Origin: a virus
DNA length: 64,000 bases
Reading direction: 5' to 3' (one strand)
IMG/VR virus record: IMGVR_UViG_3300007351_000002
The position numbers were made by a program, and so were the translations under genes. Positions 5,466 to 29,651 of this stretch are shown in pieces; the stretch's first letter is position 1, and each line of letters opens with the position of its first letter. The notes under the pieces were generated by a model, which saw nothing but the letters and a program-made list of their open reading frames with translations, made no database searches and was not told the DNA's origin.

Positions 5466-5514
5466 AGAATAGTCGGATTTGTTTTAAGTAAACAACTTTT
5501 AAAGGAGAAAAATT

Positions 5515-7647: not shown

Positions 7648-8081
7648 TGTTTAAATTTTTAAAGAAAAAAATTAAACTTGTAAAACAAAGAAATAGATAC
7701 GAATGTTCTGTAGCATGTTTATCTATGATAACCGGATGTGAATATTATAAAATATTAAATGCTATTAAAGAAATCTCTGGAAAAAATTGTGGCGAAGGAG
7801 AATTGGGATTACATGTAGGATATTTACCCCAAATACTAAAAGATAAATTTAATATAAAAAGTGAACAAATAAAATTTGAATCATTTAAAAAAATAAAGCA
7901 TTCATGCATATTATCGTTATGTCCAAGAGAATTGTCTATATACAGTAATTTTCATGGTGTTGTATATGATAGAAATAATAAAGTAATATTAGATCCATTA
8001 ATAGACGAACCTATTAAAGATATAAAAAAGTATATGAAAAATTATAATATAATAAACTGTTTGGAGGTTATTAATGTGTGA
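7647..8081 (+). CDS. putative papain-like cysteine peptidase (C39-like)
   Basis: A 'YECSVACLSMITG' Cys motif near the N-terminus and a later 'FHGVVYD' His motif resemble the C39 peptidase layout. This is pattern recognition only. Confidence 0.35.
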   Translation: MFKFLKKKIKLVKQRNRYECSVACLSMITGCEYYKILNAIKEISGKNCGEGELGLHVGYLPQILKDKFNIKSEQIKFESFKKIKHSCILSLCPRELSIYSNFHGVVYDRNNKVILDPLIDEPIKDIKKYMKNYNIINCLEVINV

Positions 8082-8472
8082 ATGCGGTTGTTCATCTTGC
8101 GGTGAATTCTGGAAACTACCGGGACCAAAGGGAATTTTTTATATAATCCAAAAATATCCCGGATGTAAAGGATGTTCCGCGCCTTGTGGAATTGACATAC
8201 AGAAAATAGGCAAAGAAAATCCCGATTATGATTTTCACAATGAAACTAAAGAACTTAAATTTTATGGAGATAAATATTTCCAATCTGCTGCAATAGGATT
8301 CTTCTCTCGTGATGATCTACATATTAAACTTAAAAAATATCTTACAAACTACTTTAAAACCAAAGATTGTTCAAAAATAGAAGATGAAGAATGTAATCTA
8401 CAACATTTGGATTATATTGACGCCGATATTATAGCAGATGAATTTTCGGACGAGTTTTTCGATGGAAAATAG
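8074..8472 (+). CDS. hypothetical Cys-rich protein (132 aa)
   Basis: ORF with a GGAGG SD. Confidence 0.5.
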   Translation: MCECGCSSCGEFWKLPGPKGIFYIIQKYPGCKGCSAPCGIDIQKIGKENPDYDFHNETKELKFYGDKYFQSAAIGFFSRDDLHIKLKKYLTNYFKTKDCSKIEDEECNLQHLDYIDADIIADEFSDEFFDGK

Positions 8473-8668
8473 AAAGAATATAGAATTGAATAAATTTAAA
8501 ATTGCTGTTAGACAAGCCTTGGCTGATTATATTTCGTCAGAAGGTTGTTCATGTTGTCAAAATATAGATAAACATAATGAGGCACAAGCTAAACTAGCGG
8601 AACTTTTAAATGTACCACCTTATGGCGACGAAAGTGGATACGATTTTGTTAGGTTTAAAACCAGTTAA
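8462..8668 (+). CDS. hypothetical protein (about 68 aa)
   Basis: ORF. The internal ATG at 8462 is chosen to minimise overlap with 8074-8472. Confidence 0.4.
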   Translation: MENRKNIELNKFKIAVRQALADYISSEGCSCCQNIDKHNEAQAKLAELLNVPPYGDESGYDFVRFKTS

Positions 8669-8688
8669 TCTGTCTGGCATGATATATT

Positions 8689-8862
8689 ATGGAAAATGAC
8701 AATTTAAGATTAGATCAAATATTTGACGATAACCATCCACTTTGTGATTTTTATAATCATTGTGATGAATGTCGCAAATATTGGAACCGTATGGTTTATG
8801 AAGAAATGTGGGAACCTTATAAGGGATGGACGGATAAGGCTATTATGGAATTTTTGATATAA
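8689..8862 (+). CDS. hypothetical protein (57 aa, MENDNLRLDQIFDD...)
   Basis: Hand-translated ORF, below the track cutoff. Its stop overlaps the next start (TAATG). Confidence 0.4.
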   Translation: MENDNLRLDQIFDDNHPLCDFYNHCDECRKYWNRMVYEEMWEPYKGWTDKAIMEFLI

Positions 8863-9083
8863 TGATTTGTAAATATTGCAAAGATACTGGAGAAGTAATT
8901 TTACTGAACGGATCTAAACCCTGTCTAGATTGTTACAATAGATATAAAGATATAAAATGCAAGGTTCATCCAGATATTAATTGTGAAATAATATTAACAG
9001 GTGATCACAAAGATAATCAAGATCATACGTATACAAAATTTTATTTTTCATGCGGCAATTATGTTATTAGATATACAAGTTAA
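8862..9083 (+). CDS. hypothetical Cys-rich protein (73 aa)
   Basis: ORF, translationally coupled to the upstream ORF. Confidence 0.45.
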   Translation: MICKYCKDTGEVILLNGSKPCLDCYNRYKDIKCKVHPDINCEIILTGDHKDNQDHTYTKFYFSCGNYVIRYTS

Positions 9084-9249
9084 TTTAGAGTTAAGAGAAG
9101 ATTTTTATAATTTCTTTAGTAATAAAGATTATTTAAAACAGGCTATTATTAAAATATTTGACGATACAATAAAAGAACGTCTTAAACAGGAAATAAATGA
9201 CATGACCATTAAAGCAGGAGATTTTTATGAAAATATTAGTTCCACATAA
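9061..9249 (+). CDS. hypothetical protein (about 62 aa)
   Basis: ORF. The internal ATG at 9061 is chosen to limit overlap. Confidence 0.35.
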   Translation: MLLDIQVNLELREDFYNFFSNKDYLKQAIIKIFDDTIKERLKQEINDMTIKAGDFYENISST

Positions 9250-9646
9250 ACATAATGATATAATGATTCAAGATCTAAAAAGAGGCGAATGCTTTTGGAG
9301 TAACAATAGATTATACATGAAAGTAGAGATTCATGGTGGACCATACGATAATGATAAATGCCGTATTTTAGATTTAGCACAAGGAGTTATTTTTATACTT
9401 AATAATGATGTTTTGGTGACACAAGACAATAATATATGTATAACAGAATTACAATCTGAAGAGAAAATGAATAGAGAAATTTCTATAGAAAATTCTGCAA
9501 GAAAATTGTGCAAAAAACTTAATGAAATAAATGAAAGCGAAGAATACAAATCTGTTTGGGAATACTTATCTGTTCATGGTATAAAATATGATGGTCCGGT
9601 TTATGCAAAAGAATTGAAAAATTTAGAAAGCGTTTTAGGAGAATAA
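9227..9646 (+). CDS. hypothetical protein (139 aa)
   Basis: ORF with an AGGAG SD. Confidence 0.5.
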   Translation: MKILVPHKHNDIMIQDLKRGECFWSNNRLYMKVEIHGGPYDNDKCRILDLAQGVIFILNNDVLVTQDNNICITELQSEEKMNREISIENSARKLCKKLNEINESEEYKSVWEYLSVHGIKYDGPVYAKELKNLESVLGE

Positions 9647-9760
9647 TATGGATTTTATAGGTTTGGTATTTAAAAAGATTCAAATGTTTATTGCTTTTGT
9701 GGCTGCACTTTTAATATATTTCGGATATTTTATAGCAAGCTTCTTTAGGAGAAAATAATA

Positions 9761-10117
9761 ATGAATTGGTATAGAATAACTTTAACAGATGGTTCAACAT
9801 GTTTCTATGAGATTAATCTTGATGTTGACGGTCTTATATCAGAAATGCACGAGAATCATCCGTTGAAAATTGAAAGAACAATTGTTTTGATTCCTCATAA
9901 TCAAAATAACAAACAGGGGTTGATTGCTGTAGAGCCGAAAAAAATCAATCCTATGTTTATGGGCTGCGACGATAAGAAAGAATATATTTGCGCGAACAAA
10001 ATAGTATCGTTCGGCGTAATAGATGTAGATAGTGAAGCTTGGACAAAAATTTATGAAAGCGTTTATCAAGAATCTAATTTGGTTAAACCAAATATGAGAC
10101 TAGTGTTACCAGAATGA
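9761..10117 (+). CDS. hypothetical protein (118 aa)
   Basis: ORF with an AGGAG SD. Confidence 0.5.
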   Translation: MNWYRITLTDGSTCFYEINLDVDGLISEMHENHPLKIERTIVLIPHNQNNKQGLIAVEPKKINPMFMGCDDKKEYICANKIVSFGVIDVDSEAWTKIYESVYQESNLVKPNMRLVLPE

Positions 10118-10195
10118 TAAATGCGGCTTTAACAATTTTATGTGTTATTTGTTTAATAATTTTAATCTTGATAGCTATAATTTATAAGGAATAAG

Positions 10196-10429
10196 ATGGC
10201 TAAACTAAAAGCACCAATTTATAAAGAAGCAAATGTACAATCGTGTAATGATTTGCTGGAAGAATTATTGGCAACTTGTCAAGAATTAGATTTTGTATGC
10301 AGGGCTAATGTTCCAATTTCAAAAAGTGGAATAAGAGTAGGTTATGGTGTTAGTGAATCTAAGAAAGCCATAGTTTGTGATACTGTTGTAAGTATAGTAA
10401 AAGAAATAAAGAAGATTAAAGGATGGTAG
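10196..10429 (+). CDS. hypothetical protein (77 aa)
   Basis: ORF with an AAGGA SD. Confidence 0.45.
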   Translation: MAKLKAPIYKEANVQSCNDLLEELLATCQELDFVCRANVPISKSGIRVGYGVSESKKAIVCDTVVSIVKEIKKIKGW

Positions 10430-10522
10430 ATATTTTAATTAATTTTGTATTGCAGTCGATTATCGTATTATCTTATTTTTTTGGATTGTTTAATTAACTT
10501 TTGTTTTTAAAAGGAAAAGAAA

Positions 10523-10741
10523 ATGGTTAAAGGCGATTCGGTATCGGTCGTTAGTTGTCCAGAATGCGAAATTCTTCAAGGTAAAGTAGGGGTAGTAAAA
10601 GAAGTCAATGAATCCGGCGATAAGGTTCGTATTAGTTTTGGCAAGGGTCGCCCACAAAAGGGTCGCCCAGAATGGTTTGAGATTTCTGGCCTACAACCAT
10701 CTACTCAAAATTCTGTAAGTATGCAGGTTAACGGAAAATAA
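10523..10741 (+). CDS. hypothetical protein (72 aa)
   Basis: ORF with an AAAGGAAAAG SD. Confidence 0.45.
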   Translation: MVKGDSVSVVSCPECEILQGKVGVVKEVNESGDKVRISFGKGRPQKGRPEWFEISGLQPSTQNSVSMQVNGK

Positions 10742-12692: not shown

Positions 12693-13909
12693 GAATAATT
12701 AGTCTTGAAGCAGAAAATGTAAAATGCCTTAAAGCTATTTCTATTAAATTTGACGAAGCTGTATTAGTAATAGGCGGCGACAACGAGCAGGGTAAGTCTA
12801 CTATTCTAGATTGTATAGAATACGCTATGTGCGGTTCAAAGAAAATTCCACCGAAACCTATTCGTAATGGTCAAGATAAAGCAAGAATAGTTTTAGAATT
12901 AGACGATATAATAGTTACTCGAACATTCACTAAAAATGGAACAAATCTTGTAGTAAAAAATAAAGATGGTGCAACGTTTCCTAGTCCACAGGCTCTTTTA
13001 GACAAACTTATTGGAAACTTATCTTTTGATCCATTAGCGTTTTCTAAAATGGATTCAAAGAAACAAATAGAAACATTAAAAAAGATTACTGGTTTAGATT
13101 TTGATTCTTTAAATAAAGACTATAAAAAGTTTTTCGATGAAAGAACAGAAGTAAATAGGAAGGGGAAAGAACTAAAGGCACAATTTGACGCCATAACATT
13201 CACCAAAGATCTGCAAGACAAAGAGGTGTCTGTATCCGATCTATCCAAGGAGTTAACTGATGCGTTGGAGCAGAATCAAAAAATTGATGAACTAGAAAAA
13301 GGCATTACTAAAAAGACGATTAGGATCAAAGAAATAGAAGTTTTAATAAAATCCCTCGAAGAAGAAAAGTCTAATCTGCGAAAAGAATTAAAGTCAGATA
13401 ATGAAAAACTAGAATCTTTTGACATTTGCGATATAAATATTATAAAGAATAAACTGTCTTCAATAGAGGATACAAACAAAAAAATAAGAGAAAATCAAAA
13501 GAAAAAAGCATTAGAAAAAGAATTAGAAAAACTTAGAGAAAAATCTCAATTATTATCAGAAAAATTACTAACTATAAACGAAACCAAAAAAGAACTTTTA
13601 TCTAATGCTAAATTTCCAGTAGAAGGATTATCTTTTGAAGAAGTTGGTGACGAAACTATTCTAATTTTTGAAGGCTTACCATTTAGTCAGTGTTCTACGG
13701 CAAGACAGATTAGGATATCGGTTGGGATGGGGCTTGCATTAAATCCTAGTCTTAAGTTGTTATTTATTAGGGAGGGCTCTTTGTTAGATCCCAGTAATCT
13801 TAAGATAATATCTGAAATGGCAGAGGAAGCAAAGGCACAAATTTTAATAGAGAGAGTTTCACAGGGCAAAGAATGTTCTATTGTGATAGAGGATGGTGAA
13901 CTTGTTTAA
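12689..13909 (+). CDS. SMC/Rad50/SbcC-like ATPase with a coiled-coil insert
   Basis: N-terminal Walker A (GGDNEQGKST), a long Lys/Glu-rich coiled-coil middle, and a C-terminal Walker B-like LLFIREGSLLD. This is the typical ABC-ATPase head split by a coil. Confidence 0.65.
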   Translation: MRIISLEAENVKCLKAISIKFDEAVLVIGGDNEQGKSTILDCIEYAMCGSKKIPPKPIRNGQDKARIVLELDDIIVTRTFTKNGTNLVVKNKDGATFPSPQALLDKLIGNLSFDPLAFSKMDSKKQIETLKKITGLDFDSLNKDYKKFFDERTEVNRKGKELKAQFDAITFTKDLQDKEVSVSDLSKELTDALEQNQKIDELEKGITKKTIRIKEIEVLIKSLEEEKSNLRKELKSDNEKLESFDICDINIIKNKLSSIEDTNKKIRENQKKKALEKELEKLREKSQLLSEKLLTINETKKELLSNAKFPVEGLSFEEVGDETILIFEGLPFSQCSTARQIRISVGMGLALNPSLKLLFIREGSLLDPSNLKIISEMAEEAKAQILIERVSQGKECSIVIEDGELV

Positions 13910-14375
13910 AGTATTTTGTGAAGATATGAGGTTGGTTTTTGTAACTATATTTCCCTTTTTAGAAAGAAAGTATGACATATATCTGGCTGGCTCAATGTCT
14001 GGTATGCCAGAACATAATTATCCTGCATTTATGCATTACGCGAAAAAACTAAGAGAACTAGGATATTCTGTGTGGAATCCGGCAGAATTTAATAATGTAG
14101 AAAAGTCCCCACAGAAATGTATGAAAGATGACATTAATGCCATAATTAACAAATGCGATATGATAGCGATTCTTCCCGGAAATAAATGGCGGTCGTCAAT
14201 AGGAGTTAATGTAGAGGTAAATGTTGCTCATGTATGTGGTAAAAAAGTTTTTCAAGTTATAGACGCCGATGGTGTTATTGGTTTAAAAAGATTTTACACA
14301 AGAGATACTAGACCATATTGTTATACAAAAGATAGGTATAGGAATGATTCTAGATACCGTTCTTTCTTGAATTAA
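13893..14375 (+). CDS. DUF4406 / nucleoside 2-deoxyribosyltransferase-like protein
   Basis: The 'IYLAGSMSGMPEHNYPAF...LGYSVWNPAE' pattern matches the DUF4406 family as I recall it. The start may be the ATG at 13926. Confidence 0.5.
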   Translation: MVNLFKVFCEDMRLVFVTIFPFLERKYDIYLAGSMSGMPEHNYPAFMHYAKKLRELGYSVWNPAEFNNVEKSPQKCMKDDINAIINKCDMIAILPGNKWRSSIGVNVEVNVAHVCGKKVFQVIDADGVIGLKRFYTRDTRPYCYTKDRYRNDSRYRSFLN

Positions 14376-14403: not shown

Positions 14404-15006
14404 ATGAAAAAGATCGTAGATATTATAGGAAAAAAATTCGGAAGATATATTGTAATATCTCGTGCCAATAACGGAAATGATGGAAGATCTATGTGGTTTT
14501 GTCGATGTGAATGCGGTGGAGAAAAAATAGTTTCTGGAAAACATCTTAAATCTGGCAGGATTAAAAGCTGCGGTTGTTATAAAAAGGAAATTTCTACAAA
14601 ACACGGTTTTTGTGGCACTAAAATATATAGAATATGGAAAAATATGATTCAAAGATGTATAAATCCAAGAGTTATTAATTATAAAAATTACGGGGGGAGG
14701 GGAATTGTAGTTTGTGAAAGATGGATGAAATTTGAAAATTTCCTTAAGGATATGGGTTCCCTACCAACAAGTAAGCATCAAATAGATAGAATAAATAATG
14801 ATTTAGGATATTACAAAGAAAATTGTAGATGGTCAACATCTAAACAAAATAATAGAAACAGAAGAAATAATCATTTATTAGAATTAAATGATAAAACTGA
14901 ATGTCTATCTGAATGGGAAGAAGAAACTGGCATAAAGCAAGAAACAATAAGAGATAGAATAAAAAGAGGCTGGTCAAATAAAGATGCATTAACCATTAAT
15001 CCTTGA
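14404..15006 (+). CDS. HNH-like homing-endonuclease family protein (paralog A)
   Basis: CxCxCG...CGC zinc motif, YGGRGIVVCERW, and an HNH_3-like IDRINNDLGYYKENCRWSTSKQNNRN. Paralogous to 22016-22657 and 49039-49659. Confidence 0.6.
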   Translation: MKKIVDIIGKKFGRYIVISRANNGNDGRSMWFCRCECGGEKIVSGKHLKSGRIKSCGCYKKEISTKHGFCGTKIYRIWKNMIQRCINPRVINYKNYGGRGIVVCERWMKFENFLKDMGSLPTSKHQIDRINNDLGYYKENCRWSTSKQNNRNRRNNHLLELNDKTECLSEWEEETGIKQETIRDRIKRGWSNKDALTINP

Positions 15007-15586
15007 GTCCCAAATAGTTTTAAATTCTTTTGAATTTGCTATATCGTCGGCTAATACAATATATTTACCCCTTCTTTTAATTGGTATTATAATTTTGTTA
15101 TAACAACAATATATTAATTCTGTACAACTCATTCTGTTCGAATCATTAAAATTAAATACAAAATCATATTCTTGATTAATGAATGTTTTTGCTAAAGCTA
15201 ATGCTTTTTGTATATATTTTTGATCTGGTCTCAATATGATTATGTTGTCTGTTCTCAAAAAATTTATAACATCTTCTATTATAACGCCATCACTAGTGGC
15301 ATGTATAACTCGTTCTTGATCTCCACCAAAAAAAAAAGCCAGCGTGAGTCCAGTATCCGGGTATTAAATATGTACTTAAATAATGATCCGATCTTGAAAG
15401 TAGAACGTCACCCGGCTTTATTACTTTAGAAATTGCCCTGTAATGTTCTCCTTTTATTTTATCGTTTGGTATGTTTATAATAAAGAATAGTGGATGTTTT
15501 ATTCCGTAAAATTTAATATCGCCAATAAATGTTAAAAATTTAGACCATAAGTTATAAAATGATTTTATCACATTAGATTTATACAC
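14989..15586 (-). pseudogene. YiiX/permuted-papain (NlpC/P60-superfamily) amidase-like gene split by a frameshift in an A10/T10 tract
   Basis: ORFs 15293-15586 and 14989-15258 join into one protein (..YWTHAGFFFGGDQERVIHATSDGVIIEDVINFLRTDNIIIL..) if the T10 run (rc of 15328-15337) is read as T9. The His-containing N-part and the Cys-containing C-part (MSCTELIYCCY) fit the permuted papain fold. Confidence 0.6.
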
Positions 15587-15897
15587 TTTTTTATTTTATT
15601 TATTTGTAATAAATTATATTCAGAATATATTTCAAATAGACTTTCAAAATCTAACTGAATACTATCGTCATAAGGATTTAATTTACCACGAAGCTCTTGA
15701 CAATTCTCTTCTATTTTATTTCTTATTATAGATATACATTTTATTGAATCAAATAAAGTTGATATAGGTTTTTCTGGTGGTTGTACCCTTCTTTTTTTTG
15801 CGATTTCACATTGTTTATGATATATCAACTGAGTTGCAGAATCATTTATTAACATTGTCCATTTTGTTAATAATAATCTAATAAGTTGTTTATTCAT
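15568..15897 (-). CDS. hypothetical protein (109 aa)
   Basis: ORF in the co-oriented minus-strand cassette, overlapping its neighbours by a few nt. Confidence 0.5.
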   Translation of the reverse strand: MNKQLIRLLLTKWTMLINDSATQLIYHKQCEIAKKRRVQPPEKPISTLFDSIKCISIIRNKIEENCQELRGKLNPYDDSIQLDFESLFEIYSEYNLLQINKIKKCINLM

Positions 15898-16163
15898 ATT
15901 TTTTTCTTCATAGATTTTATTATTTCTTCTGCTGATTTTTCTGCCAATTCAACAATATTATCTTCAAACTTTTTAATTATATCAGACGAATATCTTCTTC
16001 TTACAGCGAACGGTTTTTTGCCTAATGGATCGTCGGCCAATACATTTATAAACAAAAAATATTTTTCATACTTGCATTGAACGATCCATTCTTTTGGTAT
16101 ATTAACCCAAAGATAATTCACGAATGTATTAATTATTTCTGGAAATTTTTCTTTCATTTTCAT
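15894..16163 (-). CDS. hypothetical protein (89 aa)
   Basis: ORF in the minus-strand cassette. Confidence 0.5.
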   Translation of the reverse strand: MKMKEKFPEIINTFVNYLWVNIPKEWIVQCKYEKYFLFINVLADDPLGKKPFAVRRRYSSDIIKKFEDNIVELAEKSAEEIIKSMKKKI

Positions 16164-16171
16164 TCAATAGT

Positions 16172-16615
16172 TTATACACTATTTGGATTAAACAAAGTAA
16201 TATCGCATTCGAGATACTTTAATTTTTCTACAATAGTATATTTAACCCTGTTCCAGTCTAGTCCACCATTTCCACAACCTAATGGCGGAATGCCGACCGA
16301 TATATTGCCGAACCCCGACAAGTACGTTCTAAGCTTTTCCAAACCATCGTCTATGTAAGAGTATTTAGACGGGAATCTCCAATGATCTTTTGTGGCAAAG
16401 TTCACAACCCATTCATCGTCACGCTTCCATACCCATATGTCTCCGGGCCTAATTTCGTTCTTTAGACATACTTTTCTATATTCCCTGAACATCTTTGGAT
16501 AACGTTTTTTGAATTCTAAGGCTACGCCCTTTCCCATCACTCCCGCACAATTTATAGTATTCACTATAATATCATATTTGTTATCGAATAGATTCCCGTC
16601 TACAAATCTAATCAT
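16172..16615 (-). CDS. macro domain protein (ADP-ribose binding/hydrolase family)
   Basis: The VNTINCAGVMGKGVALEFKKRYP and GIPPLGCGNGGLDW motifs are typical of macro domains. Confidence 0.75.
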   Translation of the reverse strand: MIRFVDGNLFDNKYDIIVNTINCAGVMGKGVALEFKKRYPKMFREYRKVCLKNEIRPGDIWVWKRDDEWVVNFATKDHWRFPSKYSYIDDGLEKLRTYLSGFGNISVGIPPLGCGNGGLDWNRVKYTIVEKLKYLECDITLFNPNSV

Positions 16616-17160
16616 TACCGATTATCTCCAGAACCGCCAAGAACATTTCTATTTTTTCTATCTAGAAGTTTTGCTATATTAGTATCTAGAACTTGTTCCA
16701 TATTTATATTCATTTTATTGAGAAATCTTTTAAGTTCTTCTATTAATCCGTAAATATCGTGATTGATGAAACCTCTCGAATGTATGTCGTCACCATGTAT
16801 TATTTCTTTACAATGTGAAACTACATCATTTATAGAATTATTTAAAAGTAATATAGAATCATATATTCCGTAATTATCTATAATGAATTTAAGACTATCA
16901 AAATTATTGTATTGTAATTCTATTTTTAATTCACTACATATTGCACTTATATACCAAAAAATATCTCCAGCTTCTTTTATAATATCATTTCTTTTTGTTT
17001 CTGTAATCTCATAATTATCATCCCTTATTGCTTTTTTAAGTTTTTCTGAAAGTTCTCCAAATTCTCCAATCAATCCTAGAGTTGGATATGTTAAATTTTC
17101 ACCAATATTAGGATATACTGCCGTACTTCTTGCTGCTTTTTGATACTCCTTAATATTCAT
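16615..17160 (-). CDS. mazG: MazG-like nucleoside triphosphate pyrophosphohydrolase
   Basis: YQKAARSTAVYP...GLIGEFGELSEKLKK...EAGDIFWYI motifs (EExxE/D-type MazG core). Confidence 0.75.
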   Translation of the reverse strand: MNIKEYQKAARSTAVYPNIGENLTYPTLGLIGEFGELSEKLKKAIRDDNYEITETKRNDIIKEAGDIFWYISAICSELKIELQYNNFDSLKFIIDNYGIYDSILLLNNSINDVVSHCKEIIHGDDIHSRGFINHDIYGLIEELKRFLNKMNINMEQVLDTNIAKLLDRKNRNVLGGSGDNR

Positions 17161-17163
17161 TAT

Positions 17164-17781
17164 TTATTCCTTTATATATTTCATAATGTCATCTAAAACT
17201 TCATCTGCCAAACCTATTTTAACAACTTCTTCTGCCGTATATATTTTATCTATAGTACAAAGCTTCTCTATTTGAGAAGTAGTTATTTTTGGATTTTTTA
17301 TTTTCATTTTTTCTCTATAGATGTTATACATTGTCAATCTGTCCATTTCAGATCTTTTTGCCCACACTTCGACATTTTTAGCATGACCAGAAAGATTCGT
17401 TGATCCGTCGTGTATAACAAATTCGCAATTTTGTGATATAACTCTTAAATCTGCTGCCTGTATTATTATAGACGCCATACTTGAACAATTACCAACAGCC
17501 ACTATAGTTATATAACATTTTGATGATTTTATAGTGTCGAATATGGCCATTCCATGCGACCACTCTCCACCTATATTATTCATTATTATAGTTATTGGCT
17601 TTTCTGATATAGAATTAAGATATGTTATGCTTTTTATTATTTTTTCTGCCATAGAAAAATCTGTACCAGATTCACTACCGTCTTCTTCTTCGAATAGTGA
17701 ACCCATATAGACCATTCTTTTTGGGACGAATACGCCATAATCAAAATATCTATCTAAATCATCCTTTGAATAACGCGACAT
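17164..17781 (-). CDS. ClpP-like serine protease (S14 family)
   Basis: IIMNNIGGEWSHGMAIFDTI, GNCSSMASIIIQA (Ser) and FVIHDGS (His) match the ClpP core motifs. A role as prohead protease cannot be excluded. Confidence 0.7.
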   Translation of the reverse strand: MSRYSKDDLDRYFDYGVFVPKRMVYMGSLFEEEDGSESGTDFSMAEKIIKSITYLNSISEKPITIIMNNIGGEWSHGMAIFDTIKSSKCYITIVAVGNCSSMASIIIQAADLRVISQNCEFVIHDGSTNLSGHAKNVEVWAKRSEMDRLTMYNIYREKMKIKNPKITTSQIEKLCTIDKIYTAEEVVKIGLADEVLDDIMKYIKE

Positions 17782-17783
17782 AT

Positions 17784-18797
17784 TTAAATCTCATTTAAAT
17801 ATAGTATATCAGATAACATCTGTTCTTTATTATTATAGGTATAATCGCCAAATTTTATTCCGTGATTTTCTAAAAATTCTCTAATTAAATCATGTATTTT
17901 AATTGCTTCATCTTCTGTATTATATCTTATACCATTTTCTTTATATCGTACAAGATTTAAAAAGAATATTTGTTCATATTCATACAGTCCCTCTAAGCTT
18001 CTTTTATAAAGCTTGCTCAATAATATATTTTTGTCATTTATATCTATATCTTTAGATGTTAATAAGCCGTATACATAGGATAGAAATGTTGGAGAATCTG
18101 ATATAACCATATTGCATTTATCTAACGCATCTCTTTCTCTTGAATTTTGAGATTCCCATATCATATATTGATCATGTATATTTGGATACTTATCGTATTT
18201 CTGTATGAATGATGTAGCATATTCTATCGGACAAAATGCTATACCATGAAATTCCGTATTTATTTTATTTGTTAGCCATTGTGCTGTACTTGTTTTTCCG
18301 CTAGATGGAGCACCACAAATTGCTATCTTTCTTTTGAAATAATCCCACGCGGATAATGGGCAGGTTGCAAATTTCCTGCCTGTAAAAAAATCTTCAAGTG
18401 ATGGAAGTGTAATACCATCTAAAGATTCGACTTCAACAATTAATATATTGATTGGATGCGAAACAATATCTACAGTTACAATAAATTTGTTATTCTCTTT
18501 ATGAAGTATACGTCTTTTTTTATTTACAATAAGTTTAGTTTTATTTCTTAGAAGATTAAAAGAAGGCCAATCTATTTTTGTAGAAGTTTCCTCTCTGCCT
18601 TCTTCTTTTTTGTTATCTGATTTATTTTCTAAAAGATAATTATTTTCTAAATGTCTTAATCTCAGATTTTTATTTAAATAATAATCGTTTATATAAGTAG
18701 TAGTCATTTCATTACTAGAGTATGACGGAAATACTTTTGCTAAATTATCTATATCAATTGATCTAAACACATATGATCGTTCTTTTTCTATAAACAT
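17784..18797 (-). CDS. two-domain protein: uncertain N-domain (possibly CYTH-like) plus a P-loop NadR/ribosylnicotinamide-kinase-like ATPase
   Basis: Walker A ICGAPSSGKTSTAQWL with an AAA_28/NadR-like context. The N-terminal 'IEKER' and 'LIVEVE' strands only loosely resemble CYTH motifs. Confidence 0.5.
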   Translation of the reverse strand: MFIEKERSYVFRSIDIDNLAKVFPSYSSNEMTTTYINDYYLNKNLRLRHLENNYLLENKSDNKKEEGREETSTKIDWPSFNLLRNKTKLIVNKKRRILHKENNKFIVTVDIVSHPINILIVEVESLDGITLPSLEDFFTGRKFATCPLSAWDYFKRKIAICGAPSSGKTSTAQWLTNKINTEFHGIAFCPIEYATSFIQKYDKYPNIHDQYMIWESQNSRERDALDKCNMVISDSPTFLSYVYGLLTSKDIDINDKNILLSKLYKRSLEGLYEYEQIFFLNLVRYKENGIRYNTEDEAIKIHDLIREFLENHGIKFGDYTYNNKEQMLSDILYLNEI

Positions 18798-19009
18798 TTA
18801 ATTTCTTTCAAGAAAAGAGATAGATCGCACCATTCACATTTTTTGTTTTTATTAGAATCGCACATAGGGCAAATCCATTTGAAATTGTTTGTATATATGT
18901 ATATAGTTAATATTTTATAAATACAATCTTCACATATAAACATATTTCCACAAATTACTTTTCCGCAATTGTCATCTTTGTTATTTAGACATGTTACGCA
19001 ATTCTGCAT
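18788..19009 (-). CDS. Cys-rich zinc-binding protein (four CxxC pairs)
   Basis: CVTC, CEDC, CPMC and CEWC pairs within 73 aa. Confidence 0.5.
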   Translation of the reverse strand: MQNCVTCLNNKDDNCGKVICGNMFICEDCIYKILTIYIYTNNFKWICPMCDSNKNKKCEWCDLSLFLKEIKCL

Positions 19010-19343
19010 TTATAATCTTTCTTAATTTTTCTACAACGATCATATAATGGTTATGACATAATTCTATATAGTCTTTAACATTCCATTCTTCGTCTGTTAT
19101 TGCTGGTTCGCTTGATATTAATTCTGTCAAATCCGGTCTTAAATAATATAGTTTAAGTTGAATTTCTTTCTGTCTTTTTTCTGATGGATAATCAAATATT
19201 ACTCTTTTTCCATTATCAAATACTACCCTTCCATCTAATCCGTCTTTCATCTTAGAAGCATTTTTGATACTATCTTTAGCACATGTCTTTATTATTTCAA
19301 TCCAACAATCAAGCAATAGTTGAATCTCTTTAAAATTATCCAT
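18981..19343 (-). CDS. hypothetical protein (120 aa)
   Basis: ORF in the minus-strand cassette. Confidence 0.5.
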   Translation of the reverse strand: MDNFKEIQLLLDCWIEIIKTCAKDSIKNASKMKDGLDGRVVFDNGKRVIFDYPSEKRQKEIQLKLYYLRPDLTELISSEPAITDEEWNVKDYIELCHNHYMIVVEKLRKIINAELRNMSK

Positions 19344-20028
19344 TTATTATTTCCTCTATTTTATCTATATAATATTGACTACAATCTATTCCAGTACAAT
19401 TTCTGTTCAATCTTTTGCATACTATAGCTGTTGTGCCAGACCCGATGAATGGGTCTAGAACAGACGCACCCTCTTTAGAATGCCCTAGTATTATACGTTC
19501 CATAAGTGCCTCCGGATGTTGGGTGCAATGAAATTTTCTTTTTTCTTTAAAGGTTCCACATATTCTAGAAAAATCCCACACATTATCCGGCATTTTACCA
19601 CCACTAGCAGCCCTTTTGTCACCGTACTTTTCTTGTCTAGCAGATGGTATTTTAATATTTTCAGGATAAATTGTATCTTTATGTAACCAATATATTGGTC
19701 TAATAGAAGGAGTGTATCTTGTTTTATTTGCTTGACCGAAAGTATATCTCCAATAAAGTCTTTGTATTAAATTTACTTCTTCTTCTAATATTAAATTTTC
19801 AATAATTGGAGTCCATTTAGCGGCGAAACTTACAAAAACCGGACCATCACACATAGTACATGATTTTAATATCCAGTGTTTTAGTAATGTTATATATGCA
19901 CCATCTTTTAAGTTATCATTATAATTTTCGTATTTCCTTCCTTCGTTATCGGGTGGATCAAGAAATATTAAATCAAATCTTTGATACGTGATATATTCTT
20001 CGAATTTACTGCATATTAGATTAATCAA
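19336..20028 (-). CDS. DNA methyltransferase (N4/N6 MTase, beta-class motif order)
   Basis: Motif IV region FLDPPDN lies N-terminal and AdoMet motif I VLDPFIGSGTTAIV lies C-terminal. Motif IV reads DPPD rather than DPPY/F. Confidence 0.75.
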   Translation of the reverse strand: MINLICSKFEEYITYQRFDLIFLDPPDNEGRKYENYNDNLKDGAYITLLKHWILKSCTMCDGPVFVSFAAKWTPIIENLILEEEVNLIQRLYWRYTFGQANKTRYTPSIRPIYWLHKDTIYPENIKIPSARQEKYGDKRAASGGKMPDNVWDFSRICGTFKEKRKFHCTQHPEALMERIILGHSKEGASVLDPFIGSGTTAIVCKRLNRNCTGIDCSQYYIDKIEEIING

Positions 20029-20353
20029 GTATAATTTTCCTTTTTAAATTTTTACTTTTAATTTCGTGGCTATCTCCATCGGGATTTAAAATTCTTTTTT
20101 CTAGTTCATTTATCGGTTTTTTATTTTTATCTGTTAGTTTTCTTTTACTTATACTTTTTAAATATTCCATACCATGTGGGTGTACGCATTCAGAATACTT
20201 TGATTCAAAAAATATGAAAGCTAATTCTGCTTTTTTCTTAGTTTTATAATCTCCCATTACAAATTTTTCATTTGTACTGTAATCTATAAAAATTATTGAA
20301 TACGGCTGATAATATGGAAGTGAATTCTTTACTATTTCTAATTTTCCAGCCAT
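20021..20353 (-). CDS. hypothetical protein (110 aa), first gene of the minus-strand cassette
   Basis: ORF adjacent to the divergent intergenic region 20354-20452. Confidence 0.5.
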   Translation of the reverse strand: MAGKLEIVKNSLPYYQPYSIIFIDYSTNEKFVMGDYKTKKKAELAFIFFESKYSECVHPHGMEYLKSISKRKLTDKNKKPINELEKRILNPDGDSHEIKSKNLKRKIILD

Positions 20354-20564
20354 ACAATATTATAACTATTTTTATATTTTTTTTCTTTTTAAGAAAATAA
20401 ATACATTTGTCAGCTATAATAAGTTATGGGACTTAGTGTATAAAGCTTTATTATGAATATTAAATTTGGGTTAAAAATTAAAGAAACTGCTAGACTTTGT
20501 GCTAAGGCTATGAAAGATTTCGTTATGAAAGATCCAGAACGGGAAGATGCTATTGAGGAAATAA

Positions 20565-21125
20565 TTGCAAATGCGAAAAACAACGAAGGTATCGCAGGAA
20601 CTGATAGATCTGGCGACTCCAATAATAAATAAATTAGCCAAGCAAAGAAAGAATAAACATACTTTTGCATATTTTGAATCAGAAGATATATTTCAAGAAA
20701 TATGGCTTTTATGTTTAGATGCACTAGAAAGATATGATCCAAAATGTGGAAAATTGGAGAATTTTTTAAGCAAACATCTTTCGCATAGAATAACTAATTT
20801 AAAAAGAGATAAATATTTTAGACCAGAGAAAGATCCAGATTTATCCAAAAGAACATGGAATAGAATAAACATAATAAATGCAATTCCTATTGGACATAAT
20901 GACATATCTAATTCATCTAAATCAACATATAATTCACTTAATCAAAAAGATCCATTAGATGTATGCATAACTATAGAATTAAAAGAATTTATTATTAATA
21001 AATTACCAAAAGATATGATTAAAAATTTTGAATTGCTTATGAATGGAGAAAGATTAAAAAAAAGAATACTTACTCCATTAAGAGAAAAATTGCTTGAAAT
21101 AATAGACGAATACAATGTCAGTTAA
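20565..21125 (+). CDS. sigma-70-family-like (ECF/phage-type) transcription factor
   Basis: DIFQEIWLLCLDALERYDP...FLSKHLSHRITNLKRDKY resembles sigma region 2. At 186 aa, the size is typical of phage-encoded sigmas. Confidence 0.45.
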   Translation: MQMRKTTKVSQELIDLATPIINKLAKQRKNKHTFAYFESEDIFQEIWLLCLDALERYDPKCGKLENFLSKHLSHRITNLKRDKYFRPEKDPDLSKRTWNRINIINAIPIGHNDISNSSKSTYNSLNQKDPLDVCITIELKEFIINKLPKDMIKNFELLMNGERLKKRILTPLREKLLEIIDEYNVS

Positions 21126-22032
21126 AAGCAAACAACTTCCTAAAAATCCAGATGCTGTTAAGATATTGATAGAAATGTCAGATCAAGGATCTACATCTGA
21201 AAAAATAAGGGATAGATTAGAACAAGAATTTGGATATAAATGGAGTATAGAGACAATAAGGAGATGTAGACAAAAATTTACTTCTGATAAACAAATAAAT
21301 AAAGGAATTAAAAATAGCACCAACCCAACATTGTCTGTACCTCCACCGGGATTTGATGAGGTAGAAAAAGCACAATGGTTTAGAGATCAATTTAAAAAAA
21401 GTCATTTATTTAAAACTCTTAAAAATCAATTTACACAAGAAGAAATATCTGGATACCTAGAAGAATATGGAAATCTTTGTTGTCAATTCGAGGACATAGT
21501 ATTTAGTGAATTTTTTCAAATAGATGATTTTTTGAAACATCGCATTCTTATTAATAGACAATTAGATTTTATGAAAACTTTACAAGAAGATGTTACCGAA
21601 CTCACAAAGTGGTTCATTGATAATCCAGTTAAACCAGATGAATCTCAAGAAGCAAAAATGCAAAGAGCGTCAAGTTTTCAAAAAATAGATCAGGCCAGAA
21701 CCAGTTTAAATAAGGCTAGCGAAAGATACGATAAATTGGTAGCAGAAAGACAAAAGATATATCAAAATCTTGCTGCAACCAGAAAAGATAGAATAGAAGA
21801 ATTAAGAGGTGGAAAAGAATCTTTTTTTAGTTTAGTAGCGGCATTGCAATCGTCAGAAGCAGAAAGAGATAAACAGGGCAAATATGCGGTACTAACAAAA
21901 CTTGCGTCAGAAGATATTAAAAGGGTGTTTAGAGAAAAGGTAGAATTGGCAGACGGATCAAAGGAGCCCCTATTAATGGATAGTGAAACATTCCTGGACG
22001 AAAAAGAGGACGAAGATGAGCAAACTGAGTAA
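21115..22032 (+). CDS. putative terminase small subunit / DNA-binding packaging protein
   Basis: N-terminal HTH-like segment, a coiled-coil middle and an acidic tail. Lies upstream of TerL. Assignment is from position only. Confidence 0.35.
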   Translation: MSVKSKQLPKNPDAVKILIEMSDQGSTSEKIRDRLEQEFGYKWSIETIRRCRQKFTSDKQINKGIKNSTNPTLSVPPPGFDEVEKAQWFRDQFKKSHLFKTLKNQFTQEEISGYLEEYGNLCCQFEDIVFSEFFQIDDFLKHRILINRQLDFMKTLQEDVTELTKWFIDNPVKPDESQEAKMQRASSFQKIDQARTSLNKASERYDKLVAERQKIYQNLAATRKDRIEELRGGKESFFSLVAALQSSEAERDKQGKYAVLTKLASEDIKRVFREKVELADGSKEPLLMDSETFLDEKEDEDEQTE

Positions 22033-22657
22033 TTTAGTAGGACAAAAATTTAATAGATTAACTGTAATGAGATTTGAAGGCAAAAATAAAAATAGACAAT
22101 CAATATATTTATGTAAATGTGATTGTGGTAAAGAATTAATGGTCCTGGGTTATACTTTAAAAAATAATCACACAAAAAGTTGTGGTTGTCTTAAATTACA
22201 AAAATTAACTAGGCATGGTTATAGCAGATCAAAAATATATAATGTTTGGCACGACATTGTTCAACGGTGTAATAATAAAAATAATTGTAATTACAAGTAT
22301 TATGGTGGTCGCGGTGTTTCTGTTTGTGACCGATGGCTTAAGTTCGAAAATTTTCTTGAAGACATGGGAGAACCGCCAACGAACAAGCATGAAATAGATA
22401 GAATTGAAAATGACTTAGGATACCATAAAGAAAATTGTAGATGGGCGACTCGAAAAAATAACAATAGGAACAAAAGTAATAATAGATTAATTCATTTTCA
22501 AAATAAAGATTGGTGTTTTGCAGAATTAGCAGAAGTTTATAATATTTGTCCGAATACATTAAGACACAGGCTTAATAAGGGTTTATCAATAGAACAATCT
22601 ATTTTAATGAATTCGCAGCAAGGTAAAAGATTAAAAGAAGAGTCAAATAATGTCTAG
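22016..22657 (+). CDS. HNH-like homing-endonuclease family protein (paralog B)
   Basis: Same motifs as 14404-15006 (YGGRGVSVCDRW, IDRIENDLGYHKENCRWATRKNNNRN). Start moved to the ATG at 22016 by alignment with its paralogs. Inserted between the terS candidate and ERCC4/TerL. Confidence 0.6.
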   Translation: MSKLSNLVGQKFNRLTVMRFEGKNKNRQSIYLCKCDCGKELMVLGYTLKNNHTKSCGCLKLQKLTRHGYSRSKIYNVWHDIVQRCNNKNNCNYKYYGGRGVSVCDRWLKFENFLEDMGEPPTNKHEIDRIENDLGYHKENCRWATRKNNNRNKSNNRLIHFQNKDWCFAELAEVYNICPNTLRHRLNKGLSIEQSILMNSQQGKRLKEESNNV

Positions 22658-25252: not shown

Positions 25253-25262
25253 TGTGTATAAA
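25253..25262 (+). promoter_or_regulatory. conserved TGTGTATAAA element (candidate phage middle/late promoter)
   Basis: Exact 10-mer in the intergenic region upstream of the portal gene. One of five exact intergenic + strand copies. Confidence 0.45.
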
Positions 25263-25288: not shown

Positions 25289-27361
25289 ATGAATGAAGAA
25301 AATAAAATGTATATTAAAGCTACAGACCAAAATTTAAAAAAATACTCTATTCCAGATAATAATGTTTTAATGAATAATAAATCCATAGCCTCATCGTCTG
25401 ATCCAAGATTGATGAGTGGATTCAACAGATTTGATACAGATTTTCATAGGCCGGAAGATAGAATACCCACAAAACATCAGGATATAATACAATTATGTCA
25501 AAGTATTTATAAGAAAAATGGATTTATAAGAAACATTATTGATCTTATGGCAGATTTTGCTTCTGAAGGAATGGACATAAGATCACCAATAAAAAGTCAA
25601 GAAAAATTCTATAAAGAATGGGCAAAAAGAGTTAATCTTCAGGGTCGTGCTCATGATTTTATGAAATTAATGCTTCGTGACGCTAATGTTATAATAAGAA
25701 GAAAAACTGCCTATATTACAAAACCAGTTGTTAAAGAAATGAGTAGGGCATTTTATGATTTCACAATAGATAATGTTGATGAAAAGAAAGTAAGTGAAAA
25801 ACCAGATAAGATATTAAAAGATAAAACTAAAATTCTAAAAAACGAGATTCCTTGGGGTTATACTTTTATATCTCCTGTTATTGTTGAAAAAATAGGTGGT
25901 CCAGTAGGCAGATTCTTTGGTAGTTCAGCGCTTGGGATGAGAATAACTACCGAGTTGGCACAATCAATAAATAACCCAAAGACTGATGCGGAAAGAAAAT
26001 TCATTTCTAATTTACCATCAGAAGTTATTGCTGCTGCTAAAAACAATTCTAAAATAATAGCCCTTGATCAATCAAAAATGTATATAGATTATTACGAAAA
26101 GGATGACTGGGAAGATTGGGGTACACCATTTTTATATGGGGTTATAGAAGATCTTTTACTAAAAGACAAAATGAAACAGGCAGATAAATCCGCTTTGGAT
26201 GGAGTAATAAATACTATTCGTTTATGGAAACTTGGAAAATCTGATAGTAAAATTCTTCCTACTCCAGCGGCAGTCAATAAATTACTTACTATACTTCAGC
26301 ATAACGTTGGGGGTGGAAGCAAAGATATAGTATGGGATGATATGATTGATCTTCAAGTTGAATATCCTCCAACAGATAAGATACTTGGTTCTGATAAATA
26401 TAAGAGTGTTAATGCCGATATAATTAAAGGGCTTGGTATACCAGATTCTTTAGTTGGCGGAACTGATTTGGGAACAAGAAATGCGCAAACCGGCTTTATA
26501 CAACTAAAAACATTAGTAGAAAGATTAGAATATGTAAGAGAAAAATGTATAAATTGGATTCAACTCGAACTAAATATTTTATCTAAAGCTATGGGTTTTA
26601 AAAAAACACCAATTATAACATTTGAAAGCATGTCTCTTAGAGATGAAGCCGCAGAAAAACAATTGATGATACAATTACTTGATAGAGGTTTAATATCTGT
26701 GGAAACTGTTCATAAAACTTTTGGCAATGATTTTACATTAGAATTAGAGAATTTAAGAATCGAACAAAGTATACGAAATAAAGAACCAAATATTCTAGAA
26801 AAAGCAAATCCATATTATAGACCGTTAAGTACAATGCAATTTCAAAAAGACACACAGTTAGAATTAGAAAAACTTAAACAAGAAGGATCACTCGTTGGTG
26901 ATAATTTAGCTGGCGATCAACCTAGAAAAGAAGGTATAAATGGTCCCGGTAGACCACCTGGTAATAAAGACACAAAACCAAGGGATACAAGAACGCCAAA
27001 ATCATTGTCTGTACTTAAATCTGTTGGAGAAGAATTTCTGTCAGAAATAGATTGCATAATAGATCCAATATTTTTATCTAAAAATAATATTAAAAACATA
27101 AGATCTTTAACTAAAAAACAAAAAGAGGAACTCCAAAATATAAAGCATTTAATACTATCAGGAGTTAAAATTGATGATAAAATAACAATGGAACGAATAA
27201 AAAATATAGTATCAAATTCGTGTTCATCTAATATAAACGATTTCAATAGGATATTAAAAGATCTTATTAATGAATATAAAATAACTAATAATAAAGAAAT
27301 GTCAATAGCGGTGTATAAATCGCTTGCTAGTTCTGCATGGGCAATAATGCACGGAGATTAA
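25289..27361 (+). CDS. portal protein
   Basis: 690 aa, immediately downstream of TerL. Size and position are typical. No family motif was verified. Confidence 0.65.
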   Translation: MNEENKMYIKATDQNLKKYSIPDNNVLMNNKSIASSSDPRLMSGFNRFDTDFHRPEDRIPTKHQDIIQLCQSIYKKNGFIRNIIDLMADFASEGMDIRSPIKSQEKFYKEWAKRVNLQGRAHDFMKLMLRDANVIIRRKTAYITKPVVKEMSRAFYDFTIDNVDEKKVSEKPDKILKDKTKILKNEIPWGYTFISPVIVEKIGGPVGRFFGSSALGMRITTELAQSINNPKTDAERKFISNLPSEVIAAAKNNSKIIALDQSKMYIDYYEKDDWEDWGTPFLYGVIEDLLLKDKMKQADKSALDGVINTIRLWKLGKSDSKILPTPAAVNKLLTILQHNVGGGSKDIVWDDMIDLQVEYPPTDKILGSDKYKSVNADIIKGLGIPDSLVGGTDLGTRNAQTGFIQLKTLVERLEYVREKCINWIQLELNILSKAMGFKKTPIITFESMSLRDEAAEKQLMIQLLDRGLISVETVHKTFGNDFTLELENLRIEQSIRNKEPNILEKANPYYRPLSTMQFQKDTQLELEKLKQEGSLVGDNLAGDQPRKEGINGPGRPPGNKDTKPRDTRTPKSLSVLKSVGEEFLSEIDCIIDPIFLSKNNIKNIRSLTKKQKEELQNIKHLILSGVKIDDKITMERIKNIVSNSCSSNINDFNRILKDLINEYKITNNKEMSIAVYKSLASSAWAIMHGD

Positions 27362-27362
27362 T

Positions 27363-27911: not shown

Positions 27912-27914
27912 TTT

Positions 27915-28235: not shown

Positions 28236-28262
28236 TTGAAAAGTATTTATTTAAATTTAATT

Positions 28263-28272
28263 TGTGTATAAA
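28263..28272 (+). promoter_or_regulatory. conserved TGTGTATAAA element
   Basis: Exact 10-mer ending 6 nt before the ATG at 28279. No SD is present, so this is a possible leaderless start. Confidence 0.4.
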
Positions 28273-28278
28273 AATTAC

Positions 28279-29649: not shown

Positions 29650-29651
29650 TA

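Follow-up and report, generated by a model that had tools for sequence, protein, structure and literature searches.

Candidate mosaic accessory operon of an uncultivated large-phage clade, with a DarG-type macro domain and a CYTH-kinase fusion

AdfM, the gp104 protein of phage PhiKZ, strips DarT2-made ADP-ribose off DNA and shields PhiKZ from DarTG2 (PMC13309987), and sets for the reconstitution or salvage of nicotinamide adenine dinucleotide (NAD+), with NadV, NadM and NadR, are also encoded by phages (PMC9503650). In large and jumbo phages, the methyltransferase, MazG, ClpP and CYTH classes are patchily distributed accessory genes, and the MazG and CYTH triphosphatases of jumbo phages have been proposed to clear unmodified nucleoside triphosphates (NTPs) (PMC7824862). 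Here, we performed a computational analysis of a minus-strand gene block at 14989-20353 of the IMG/VR virus record IMGVR_UViG_3300007351_000002, which encodes a macro domain, a MazG-like protein, a ClpP homologue, a CYTH-kinase fusion and a DNA methyltransferase homologue; the whole 64,000-nucleotide stretch analyzed is called the window throughout.

Our analyses suggested that the block is probably a mosaic leftward accessory operon of one uncultivated large-phage clade, and not a system that can be demonstrated to be single. It is not yet a new kind of system. The macro domain is the only block gene for which a counter-defence role, predicted from homology, is well supported. A preliminary description of the window had proposed a counter-defence island of enzymes acting on nucleotides or nucleotide-derived modifications and signals. 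Its general theme was borne out by the domain assignments, and the counter-defence part was strengthened in so far as the macro domain is DarG-type and AdfM-related, but no evidence was found that ties the genes into one system.

Layout and conservation of the leftward block

The minus strand of 14989-20353 contains 11 open reading frames (ORFs), each of which overlaps its neighbour or lies no more than 8 nucleotides away from it (from the 20353 end downward: overlaps of 8, 8, 29 and 10 nucleotides, gaps of 2 and 3, an overlap of 1, a gap of 8, and overlaps of 4 and 19). Protein-level conservation in contigs of related phages extended to all block genes, which indicates that these ORFs are genuine genes and did not arise by chance. 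The minus-strand ORFs of the preliminary description were all found where it had placed them, and Pfam agreed with its five domain assignments (macro, MazG, ClpP-like, NadR-like P-loop kinase and DNA methyltransferase), with concordant PHROG matches. The block had been drawn to end at 15568; it is real but extends ~580 bp further, to 14989, into a frameshifted C92 amidase gene. It had also been called the only long opposite-strand block, which holds for 6-64 kb but not for the first 6 kb, where minus-strand ORFs and negative GC skew were present as well. Within the part of the window with ~30% GC, the GC and AT skews changed sign only over 16-20 kb.

A total of 32 distinct loci of the clade were retrieved via the kinase and ClpP, and the presence of ClpP in all 32 is biased by this retrieval. 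These loci (numbered, like all loci inspected, with the prefix L) have common flanks and gene order, their terminases are 58-86% identical, and their contigs reach ~160-180 kb. The methyltransferase was present in 32 of the 32 loci, MazG in ~28, helical protein A in 28, an 89-amino-acid (aa) protein in 27, a protein with four CxxC pairs in 23 and the C92 amidase in 22; helical protein B was detected in 11, the CYTH-kinase in 10, the first, 110-aa gene in 9 and the macro domain in 5. A Nudix hydrolase gene fills the macro slot in relatives without the macro gene, the kinase is relocated in L016 and L019, and an RlaP nucleotidyltransferase occupies a distal block slot in L014, L016 and L019. The exchange at the macro/Nudix slot and the distal RlaP gene fit a variable accessory locus.

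We propose that the block sits between recombination and replication genes on one side and sigma-like, terminase and head genes on the other, and that its backbone would comprise the 110-aa protein, the methyltransferase, helical protein A, the protein with four CxxC pairs, the ClpP-like protein, MazG, the 89-aa protein, helical protein B and the C92 amidase. Inserts into this backbone would be the CYTH-NadR-like kinase and the DarG-type macro gene here, and Nudix, RlaP or homing HNH genes in relatives. The block genes may therefore be described as having regulation and a genomic accessory slot in common, and not a demonstrated common pathway. Neighbourhood comparison gave no indication that macro, MazG, ClpP and kinase travel as a unit: they occurred together only in one phage clade, whose loci have the same flanks, and the two genes most central to the suggested handling of nucleotide signals, macro and kinase, turned out to be variable inserts and not a fixed set. 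Outside the clade, the kinase (between DnaE halves) and ClpP (in replication and portal contexts) were found in unrelated neighbourhoods. At the DNA level, 15000-21000 had no match among 50,697 phage records.

The first block gene is separated from a rightward 59-aa gene by a divergent intergenic region at 20354-20452, which carries TATAAT in the leftward and GTGTATAA in the rightward direction. The former lies at 20364-20359 on the minus strand, 5 nucleotides upstream of the ATG of the first block gene, and the latter at 20436-20443 on the plus strand, 9 nucleotides upstream of the 59-aa gene. Alignment of seven relatives over this region revealed that TATAAT before the first ATG and TATACAC(T/A)A on the opposite side were both kept. 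In the window, 14 copies of the 8-mer GTGTATAA were counted where 3.2 were expected, a number reached in 0 of 100 shuffles; 12 of them run in the sense direction of the local genes, and about six are located 7-9 nucleotides ahead of plausible start codons, two of these starts being re-read and not listed ORF starts. Its sites include 647-654, 20436-20443, 25254-25261, 28264-28271 and 32624-32631, as well as 16172-16179 and 15579-15586 on the minus strand, and it has the look of a -10-like element serving transcripts with no leader or a very short one. The last two copies lie inside the block, at 16179-16172 before the 89-aa gene (15894-16163) and at 15586-15579 before the C92 gene, so the block may have internal start points. 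The proposal of one operon is supported by the tight packing and the conserved TATAAT but is qualified by these internal copies, and a single operon over 14989-20353 is likely though not certain. A scan with generic sigma-70 promoter and terminator consensus sequences was uninformative in this AT-rich DNA (35 sites vs 47.6 expected).

Enzymes encoded in the block

The gene at 16172-16615 (minus strand) encodes a stand-alone DarG-type macro domain of 147 aa. It matched Pfam Macro (E 4.8e-12), NCBIfam antitoxin_DarG (6.9e-62 over model positions 1-150 of 338, with the runner-up family at 9e-5) and PADLOC DarG (1.8e-62), and its best PDB matches were the DarG macro domains 5m3i of M. tuberculosis and 5m31 of T. 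aquaticus (3e-36), TARG1 being matched at 6e-10. Identity to PhiKZ gp104/AdfM was 35%. In a three-way alignment of the window macro, AdfM and the T. aquaticus protein (TaqDarG), TK(D/K)HW and T(I/V)N were kept, and the window protein retains the active-site Asn (the residue mutated in AdfM) and the catalytic Lys equivalent to K80 of TaqDarG, a position counted by hand in the TaqDarG sequence. The protein is not a full-length DarG: it scored 209.7 bits against the antitoxin_DarG cutoff of 250, and the DarT-binding C-domain is absent. Since this domain is missing and no DarT-family match was found by Pfam or PADLOC among the 10 block ORFs scanned, the macro appears to be an orphan antitoxin-like enzyme and not part of a toxin-antitoxin system. 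More than 1300 proteins were found as its nearest relatives, those listed being mostly 143-180 aa long, which shows that the DarG-type stand-alone macro class is common; macro genes of this kind occurred in only 5 of the 32 clade loci, in one of them (L017) at a different site. Homology gives good support to the prediction that the window macro is a DNA ADP-ribosylglycohydrolase of the AdfM type, the described anti-DarTG2 class. It would take ADP-ribose placed by host DarT2 off the thymidines of single-stranded phage DNA, and phage replication would be rescued in this way.

The second insert, at 17784-18797 (minus strand), codes for a fusion of a CYTH (triphosphate tunnel) domain with an AAA_28 P-loop kinase resembling the ribosylnicotinamide kinase (RNK) domain of NadR. 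The C-terminal half matched Pfam AAA_28 (E 8.7e-13, 49.3 bits vs a cutoff of 27), and the AlphaFold2 (AF2) model, built on an alignment of 40 family members, had a predicted local distance difference test score (pLDDT) of 92.9. The N-domain had been read as CYTH-like in the preliminary description, and the AF2 model with Foldseek showed a CYTH/triphosphate tunnel metalloenzyme (TTM) fold, with SaTTM 7ns9 at E 8e-7 and with 7ns9, 1yem and CyaB 2fjt all at probability 1.00. The tunnel residues R46, R48, K59, K63, E70, K93, R95, D110, E122 and E124 are kept, as is the Walker A motif of the kinase. CYTH proteins bear the N-terminal signature ExExK; in this family E4 and E6 are nearly invariant and the position of the signature Lys is Ser8. 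For the C-domain, Foldseek returned NadR RNK domains (6gzo, E 4.5e-6) together with thymidylate and deoxynucleoside kinases, and it also returned the plant kinase and TTM tandem AtTTM1 (7z67) and the TTM of the vaccinia capping enzyme. The PHROG label for the kinase half was 'thymidylate kinase' (3.4e-13). The NCBIfam NadR models scored 18 bits against cutoffs of 201-341, with a match around the P-loop only. Because the sequence similarity of the kinase half to NadR is marginal (E ~1e-3) and an adenylyltransferase domain is absent, the CYTH-kinase is not a NadR.

The full-length fusion is rare. It formed ~45-50 clusters at 50% identity among 1.84 billion representatives, and stand-alone homologues of the kinase were numerous. 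All inspected contexts of the CYTH-kinase were phage-like. In L007 (6655-10944) and L008 (5484-10936), 480-520-kb megaphage-like contigs whose phage nature is inferred from gene content, it lies between split DnaE halves (the PHP/N-terminal and C-terminal parts) with no partner from the block. A profile scan of 185,579 GTDB genomes gave no relative of the CYTH-kinase; scanning IMG/VR with the single kinase protein gave no confirmed relative, profile-based scans being required, and an exact-sequence look-up of the window kinase gave no record. The literature on CYTH and nicotinamide riboside kinases in phages yielded no description of the fusion.

The methyltransferase homologue at 19336-20028 (minus strand) belongs to the beta-class N6/N4 DNA methyltransferases (Pfam N6_N4_Mtase 2.5e-39; NCBIfam PRK11524 4e-30, below its cutoff; PADLOC MTase_II). 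Its motif I, DPFIGSGTT, is present. Motif IV (residues 28-31) departs from the canonical (D/S/N)PP(Y/F/W) and reads DPPD, aligned to the DPPY of PDB 9c3u, and DPPD(N/C) was found in 45 of the 45 clade copies aligned, some of them from duplicate fetches; the methyltransferase of the Lak-like phage L008 has DPPF. Since DPPD removes the usual aromatic residue of motif IV, activity or substrate may differ, and the plain label of an orphan Dam-like anti-restriction methylase is not safe. No partner nuclease or endonuclease was recognised by Pfam or PADLOC. The methyltransferase may mark phage DNA against restriction, its substrate being uncertain owing to the altered catalytic motif.

The product of 16615-17160 (minus strand) is a MazG-like all-alpha NTP pyrophosphohydrolase (Pfam MazG 1.5e-6, 28.8 bits vs a cutoff of 22; PHROG_229 2e-32) with the acidic ExxE...ExxD motif in the form GEFGELSE...KEAGD, and sequence search of the PDB gave no solved relative. 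MazG and the CYTH-kinase might have the nucleotide pool or phosphorylated derivatives of nucleosides as their substrates, and might aid phage DNA synthesis or sanitise the pool.

The gene at 17164-17781 (minus strand) encodes a full-length homologue of the ClpP-family serine proteases (Pfam CLP_protease E 6.5e-26; PDB ClpPs at ~1e-12). Alignment of residues 37-198 to P. falciparum and bacterial ClpPs (SSMAS/IHD/D vs ASMAS/IHQ/D) showed that the Ser-His-Asp triad is kept, and the family has its own conserved ESGTD insert as a hallmark. Neither curated NCBIfam cutoff was reached, the scores being 76 bits against 228 for ClpP and 73 bits against 120 for the ClpP-related head maturation family NF045542. 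We surveyed this ClpP family in 76 IMG/VR loci (the L021-L095 series) and found it in three or more kinds of surroundings; the contigs include many of 100-207 kb as well as short fragments, and two ClpP-like genes lie close together in L051, L058, L067, L087 and L095. In 17 loci outside the clade, ClpP follows DnaB-helicase/primase genes and precedes a likely ATP-dependent DNA ligase, and in about five non-clade loci, including L044, L049, L067 and L095, it is located two genes after the portal. The ~420-aa neighbour in relatives was considered as ClpX and rejected, its KxDG motif (PKLDGYR), recognised by eye and without a family search, being typical of ATP-dependent DNA ligases. Likewise, the 428-aa gene after ClpP in L049, considered as a capsid protein, proved to be an SbcD/Mre11-like exonuclease, and a 182-aa gene after the portal, considered as a conserved protease, was missing from L009 and L011. 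Neither the ORF list of the window nor the neighbourhoods of the relatives showed a phage-encoded unfoldase near ClpP, and nothing specific on phage ClpP was found in the literature. The homologue is probably an active serine protease, which would be host-directed or act in head maturation.

Small proteins, the amidase gene and the flanks

Five block proteins, at 15568-15897, 15894-16163, 18788-19009, 18981-19343 and 20021-20353 (all minus strand), had no match above the curated cutoff in Pfam, PHROG, NCBIfam or PADLOC. Sub-cutoff Pfam matches among them to TRI5, RING-like zf-C3HC4_3 and AIB were set aside, as they look like chance. The 120-aa helical protein A (18981-19343) was modelled as a helical bundle (AF2 pLDDT 88.6), which had no fold match in the PDB or BFVD and no significant PDB profile match, and the 109-aa helical protein B (15568-15897) is its full-length paralogue (hhalign probability 95%, E 3e-8). 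There are 70 homologues of helical protein A, the long contigs among them measuring ~115-181 kb. One of these homologues, P0154, is in a 4.9-Mb record of a Candidatus Heimdallarchaeota metagenome-assembled genome, a record that may contain a phage contig, and another is annotated 'marine sediment metagenome' by NCBI, which is a hint of habitat. Helical protein B is divergent or often absent in the clade, as tblastn detected it in only 11 of the 32 loci, and the same applies to the 110-aa product of the first operon gene (20021-20353), which tblastn detected in only 9 of the 32 loci, at 32-82% identity.

The 73-aa protein at 18788-19009, in which the preliminary description had seen four CxxC pairs, indeed has them at Cys 4/7, 26/29, 47/50 and 58/61, and they are kept in relatives; the protein is predicted to be a two-zinc module. 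Its RING-like Pfam match was weak (E 0.002). Its gene stands immediately before ClpP wherever the kinase is absent from that position, including L016, L019 and most clade loci. The 89-aa protein (15894-16163), with GTGTATAA upstream of its gene, was conserved in 27 of the 32 loci; PDB profile searches with it and with 20021-20353 were empty or non-significant.

The last gene of the block (14989-15586, minus strand) encodes a Peptidase_C92 protein, a permuted papain-like amidase of YiiX/YaeF type, and contains a +1 frameshift, a T10 run at 15328-15337 being one T too long. After removal of one T, the protein matched Pfam Peptidase_C92 at 6e-18. The gene is intact in L001 and L006, and the window copy matched the L006 homologue in two frames by tblastn; the frameshift may be a sequencing error or may mark a pseudogene.

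The window is a tailed-phage genome. Upstream of the block are an SbcC-like ATPase, a DUF4406 gene and HNH genes, the DUF4406/Nuc_deoxyrib_tr gene at 13893-14375 adjoining the block. Similar HNH endonuclease genes at 14404-15006 and 21983-22657 (both plus strand) flank the block region; the former overlaps the 3' end of the C92 gene by 18 bp, is absent there in L001 and L006, and has a homologue inside the block of L013. These flanking genes look like mobile homing-type insertions. Downstream, we found a sigma-like protein, an ERCC4 nuclease, the large terminase, a 690-aa putative portal, a coiled-coil scaffold-like protein, a cement-like protein and a capsid protein of HK97 fold. The putative portal had no family match, and a related 684-aa protein of L049 matched portal PHROGs. 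The scaffold-like protein (28279-29649, plus strand, 461 aa) is a coiled-coil protein whose N-terminal 250 aa are strongly conserved, with invariant His102, His110 and Ser170 and a motif, GRVLKNIvFGGQGLVxxPANPES, resembling the C-terminal motif of the HK97 gp4 protease. Its N-terminal half had no match as an HK97-type (S78) prohead protease in the phage collection, NCBIfam or the PDB, and comparison by hhalign with an alignment of nine S78 proteases yielded probabilities of 1.5% and 3.5%, which are not significant. It could be a protease-scaffold fusion, a suggestion that the statistics do not support.

Positions 1-6000 of the window have a GC content of 42-47%, compared with ~30% in the remainder, a negative GC skew and short ORFs only, among them an HNH_2 ORF at 664-1185, and carry a tRNA-Met at 1144-1218 (minus strand). 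As the HNH_2 ORF is preceded by GTGTATAA in the same way as the phage genes are, these first ~6 kb seem to belong to the same genome.

Competing readings and comparison with known systems

Several observations weigh against the reading of the block as a mosaic accessory operon. Tight packing and a conserved promoter-like element are equally expected of a true multi-component system, and the helical pair and the Cys-rich protein, which had no family match above cutoff, could form the centre of a machine not yet described. Furthermore, the unrelated phage contig L020 carries, at 7697-10534, genes for a Thg1-like protein, a macro domain, an 89-aa ORF, a YAcAr/SLOG protein, a 145-aa ORF and a stand-alone AAA_28 kinase, an independent association of the macro domain with this kinase family, and in L072 a macro gene directly follows the ClpP homologue; some functional coupling among these classes is therefore possible. 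These two neighbourhoods, the probable co-transcription indicated by the packing and the conserved TATAAT, the DarG type of the macro and its alternation with Nudix in one slot, both classes being processors of ADP-ribose, would also suit an integrated island in which macro, MazG, CYTH-kinase, ClpP and methyltransferase form one anti-immunity system handling NAD, ADP-ribose and nucleotide signals. We consider such an island improbable. The co-occurrence is restricted to one clade, where it equals synteny; the kinase and the macro are among the least constant members; elsewhere the kinase stands alone in replication modules and ClpP occurs in replication and portal contexts; and no known NAD-reconstitution or signal-degrading family was found in the block by Pfam, PHROG, NCBIfam or PADLOC. 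Little credence is likewise given to a reading in which the CYTH-kinase is a new counter-defence enzyme, and to the related possibility that part of the backbone is a device for targeted proteolysis. The kinase could then destroy or rebuild a phosphorylated nucleoside-derived immune molecule, for example by salvage of NAD+ precursors after NADase effectors or by signal inactivation, and could act alongside the ADP-ribose-processing gene (DarG-type macro or Nudix) in the adjoining slot, while the helical pair, the protein with four CxxC pairs and ClpP could make up a phage-encoded apparatus directed against host defence proteins.

Two further explanations place the enzymes in nucleic acid metabolism, and a third concerns ClpP. 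MazG, the CYTH-kinase, the DUF4406 gene and the methyltransferase might be a nucleotide-pool or DNA-precursor module for replication, with anti-defence as a side effect at most. The 'thymidylate kinase' label and the Foldseek matches to thymidylate and deoxynucleoside kinases, the position of the kinase between DnaE halves in megaphage-like contigs, the deoxyribosyltransferase-like DUF4406 gene beside the block and the proposal made for jumbo-phage MazG and CYTH proteins (PMC7824862) all argue for it; however, no thymidylate-synthase-like or base-modifying enzyme was found among the scanned block and flanking ORFs, many window ORFs being unscanned, and the DarG-type macro, ClpP and the C92 amidase would be left unexplained, so that we regard this module as rather unlikely. 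Still less probable, and in our view very unlikely, is RNA repair and ADP-ribose clean-up after attack by host anticodon nucleases, whereby the kinase would heal RNA ends, CYTH would act on 5'-triphosphates, the macro would clear ADP-ribose-phosphate by-products and RlaP or Thg1 would restore nucleotides. The RlaP genes of L014, L016 and L019, the grouping of Thg1, macro, SLOG and AAA_28 kinase in L020, a weak KTI12/PSTK-like Pfam match of the kinase (1.1e-5) and the vaccinia TTM among the fold matches point in that direction, but there is no RNA ligase among the scanned block and flanking ORFs, the macro is specifically of the DarG type, a DNA de-ADP-ribosylase class, and the best fold matches of the kinase are nucleoside and nucleotide kinases and not polynucleotide kinases. 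With regard to ClpP, it is a serious possibility, though one we lean against, that this gene is the prohead (head maturation) protease, in which case the block would mix morphogenesis and accessory genes and ClpP would be irrelevant to counter-defence. Its top PHROG matches are head maturation proteases (7e-25), the 73 bits of the NCBIfam head-maturation model come near the 76 bits of the ClpP models, both below cutoff, no library recognised a protease in the head module at 25289-31179, ClpP was present in 9 of the 9 clade loci retrieved via the kinase, its 44-96% identity within the clade resembles the conservation and slow evolution of core genes, and it lies two genes after the portal in the non-clade loci named above. 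In contrast, it is encoded on the opposite strand with methyltransferase, MazG and macro as operon partners, 17 loci have it between primase and DNA ligase, and its architecture is that of a full-length ClpP, including the N-terminal and handle regions; an alternative head-protease candidate would be the scaffold-like protein at 28279-29649, but its HK97 gp4 resemblance is not significant (hhalign 3.5%).

Under the favoured reading of a mosaic accessory operon, the macro gene would extend the AdfM/orphan-DarG strategy to an uncultivated large-phage lineage, and the swap-prone macro/Nudix slot in a conserved operon may be a practical place to seek new anti-defence genes. We found no description of three features, namely the fusion of CYTH and kinase, the methyltransferase with DPPD and the backbone of uncharacterised proteins, and their functions are inferred. 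The ClpP family, which occurs at 76 or more large-phage loci, may serve head maturation or host proteolysis.

Compared with described enzymes, the methyltransferase resembles phage orphan beta-class adenine methyltransferases (CcrM/YhdJ/M.RsrI-like) in its N6_N4_Mtase domain, in motif I and in having no recognised partner endonuclease, but it has DPPD(N/C) where these have DPP(Y/F/W). MazG shares its domain and acidic motif with phage MazG-like enzymes (PHROG 229, cyanophage MazG and the all-alpha NTP pyrophosphohydrolase superfamily), and differs from the Pfam MazG core by an insert or extension of ~70 aa. The ClpP homologue is alike to ClpP (MEROPS S14) over its full length and in its Ser-His-Asp triad, whereas it is set apart from both ClpP and the head-maturation family by scores under both curated cutoffs, by the ESGTD insert and by a position that is not beside portal or capsid genes. 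The fusion is like NadR in having an AAA_28 P-loop kinase with a fold match to RNK domains (6gzo, 1lw7), but it has no nicotinamide mononucleotide (NMN) adenylyltransferase or helix-turn-helix domain. Its likeness to the phage NAD salvage sets (PMC9503650) is limited to the kinase family name, NadR-like, and no homologue of NadV/Nampt, NMNAT, Adps or Namat was found in the block by Pfam, PHROG or NCBIfam. With the plant TTM1/TTM2 tandem proteins, represented by AtTTM1 (7z67), it has in common a kinase and a TTM domain on one chain; the order is CYTH then kinase in the window protein and the reverse in AtTTM1, and the kinase of AtTTM1 is uridine-kinase-like.

The closest correspondence concerns the macro domain. 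A true DarG has a C-terminal DarT-binding domain, which the window macro does not have, and AdfM is imported into the PhiKZ nucleus, whereas there is no phage-nucleus evidence for the window phage. The window macro is similar to both AdfM and DarG in its macro domain of ~150 aa with the Asn of the xxN motif, the Lys equivalent to K80 and the GNGG loop, and, like AdfM, it is encoded by a phage without a darT partner (PMC13309987).

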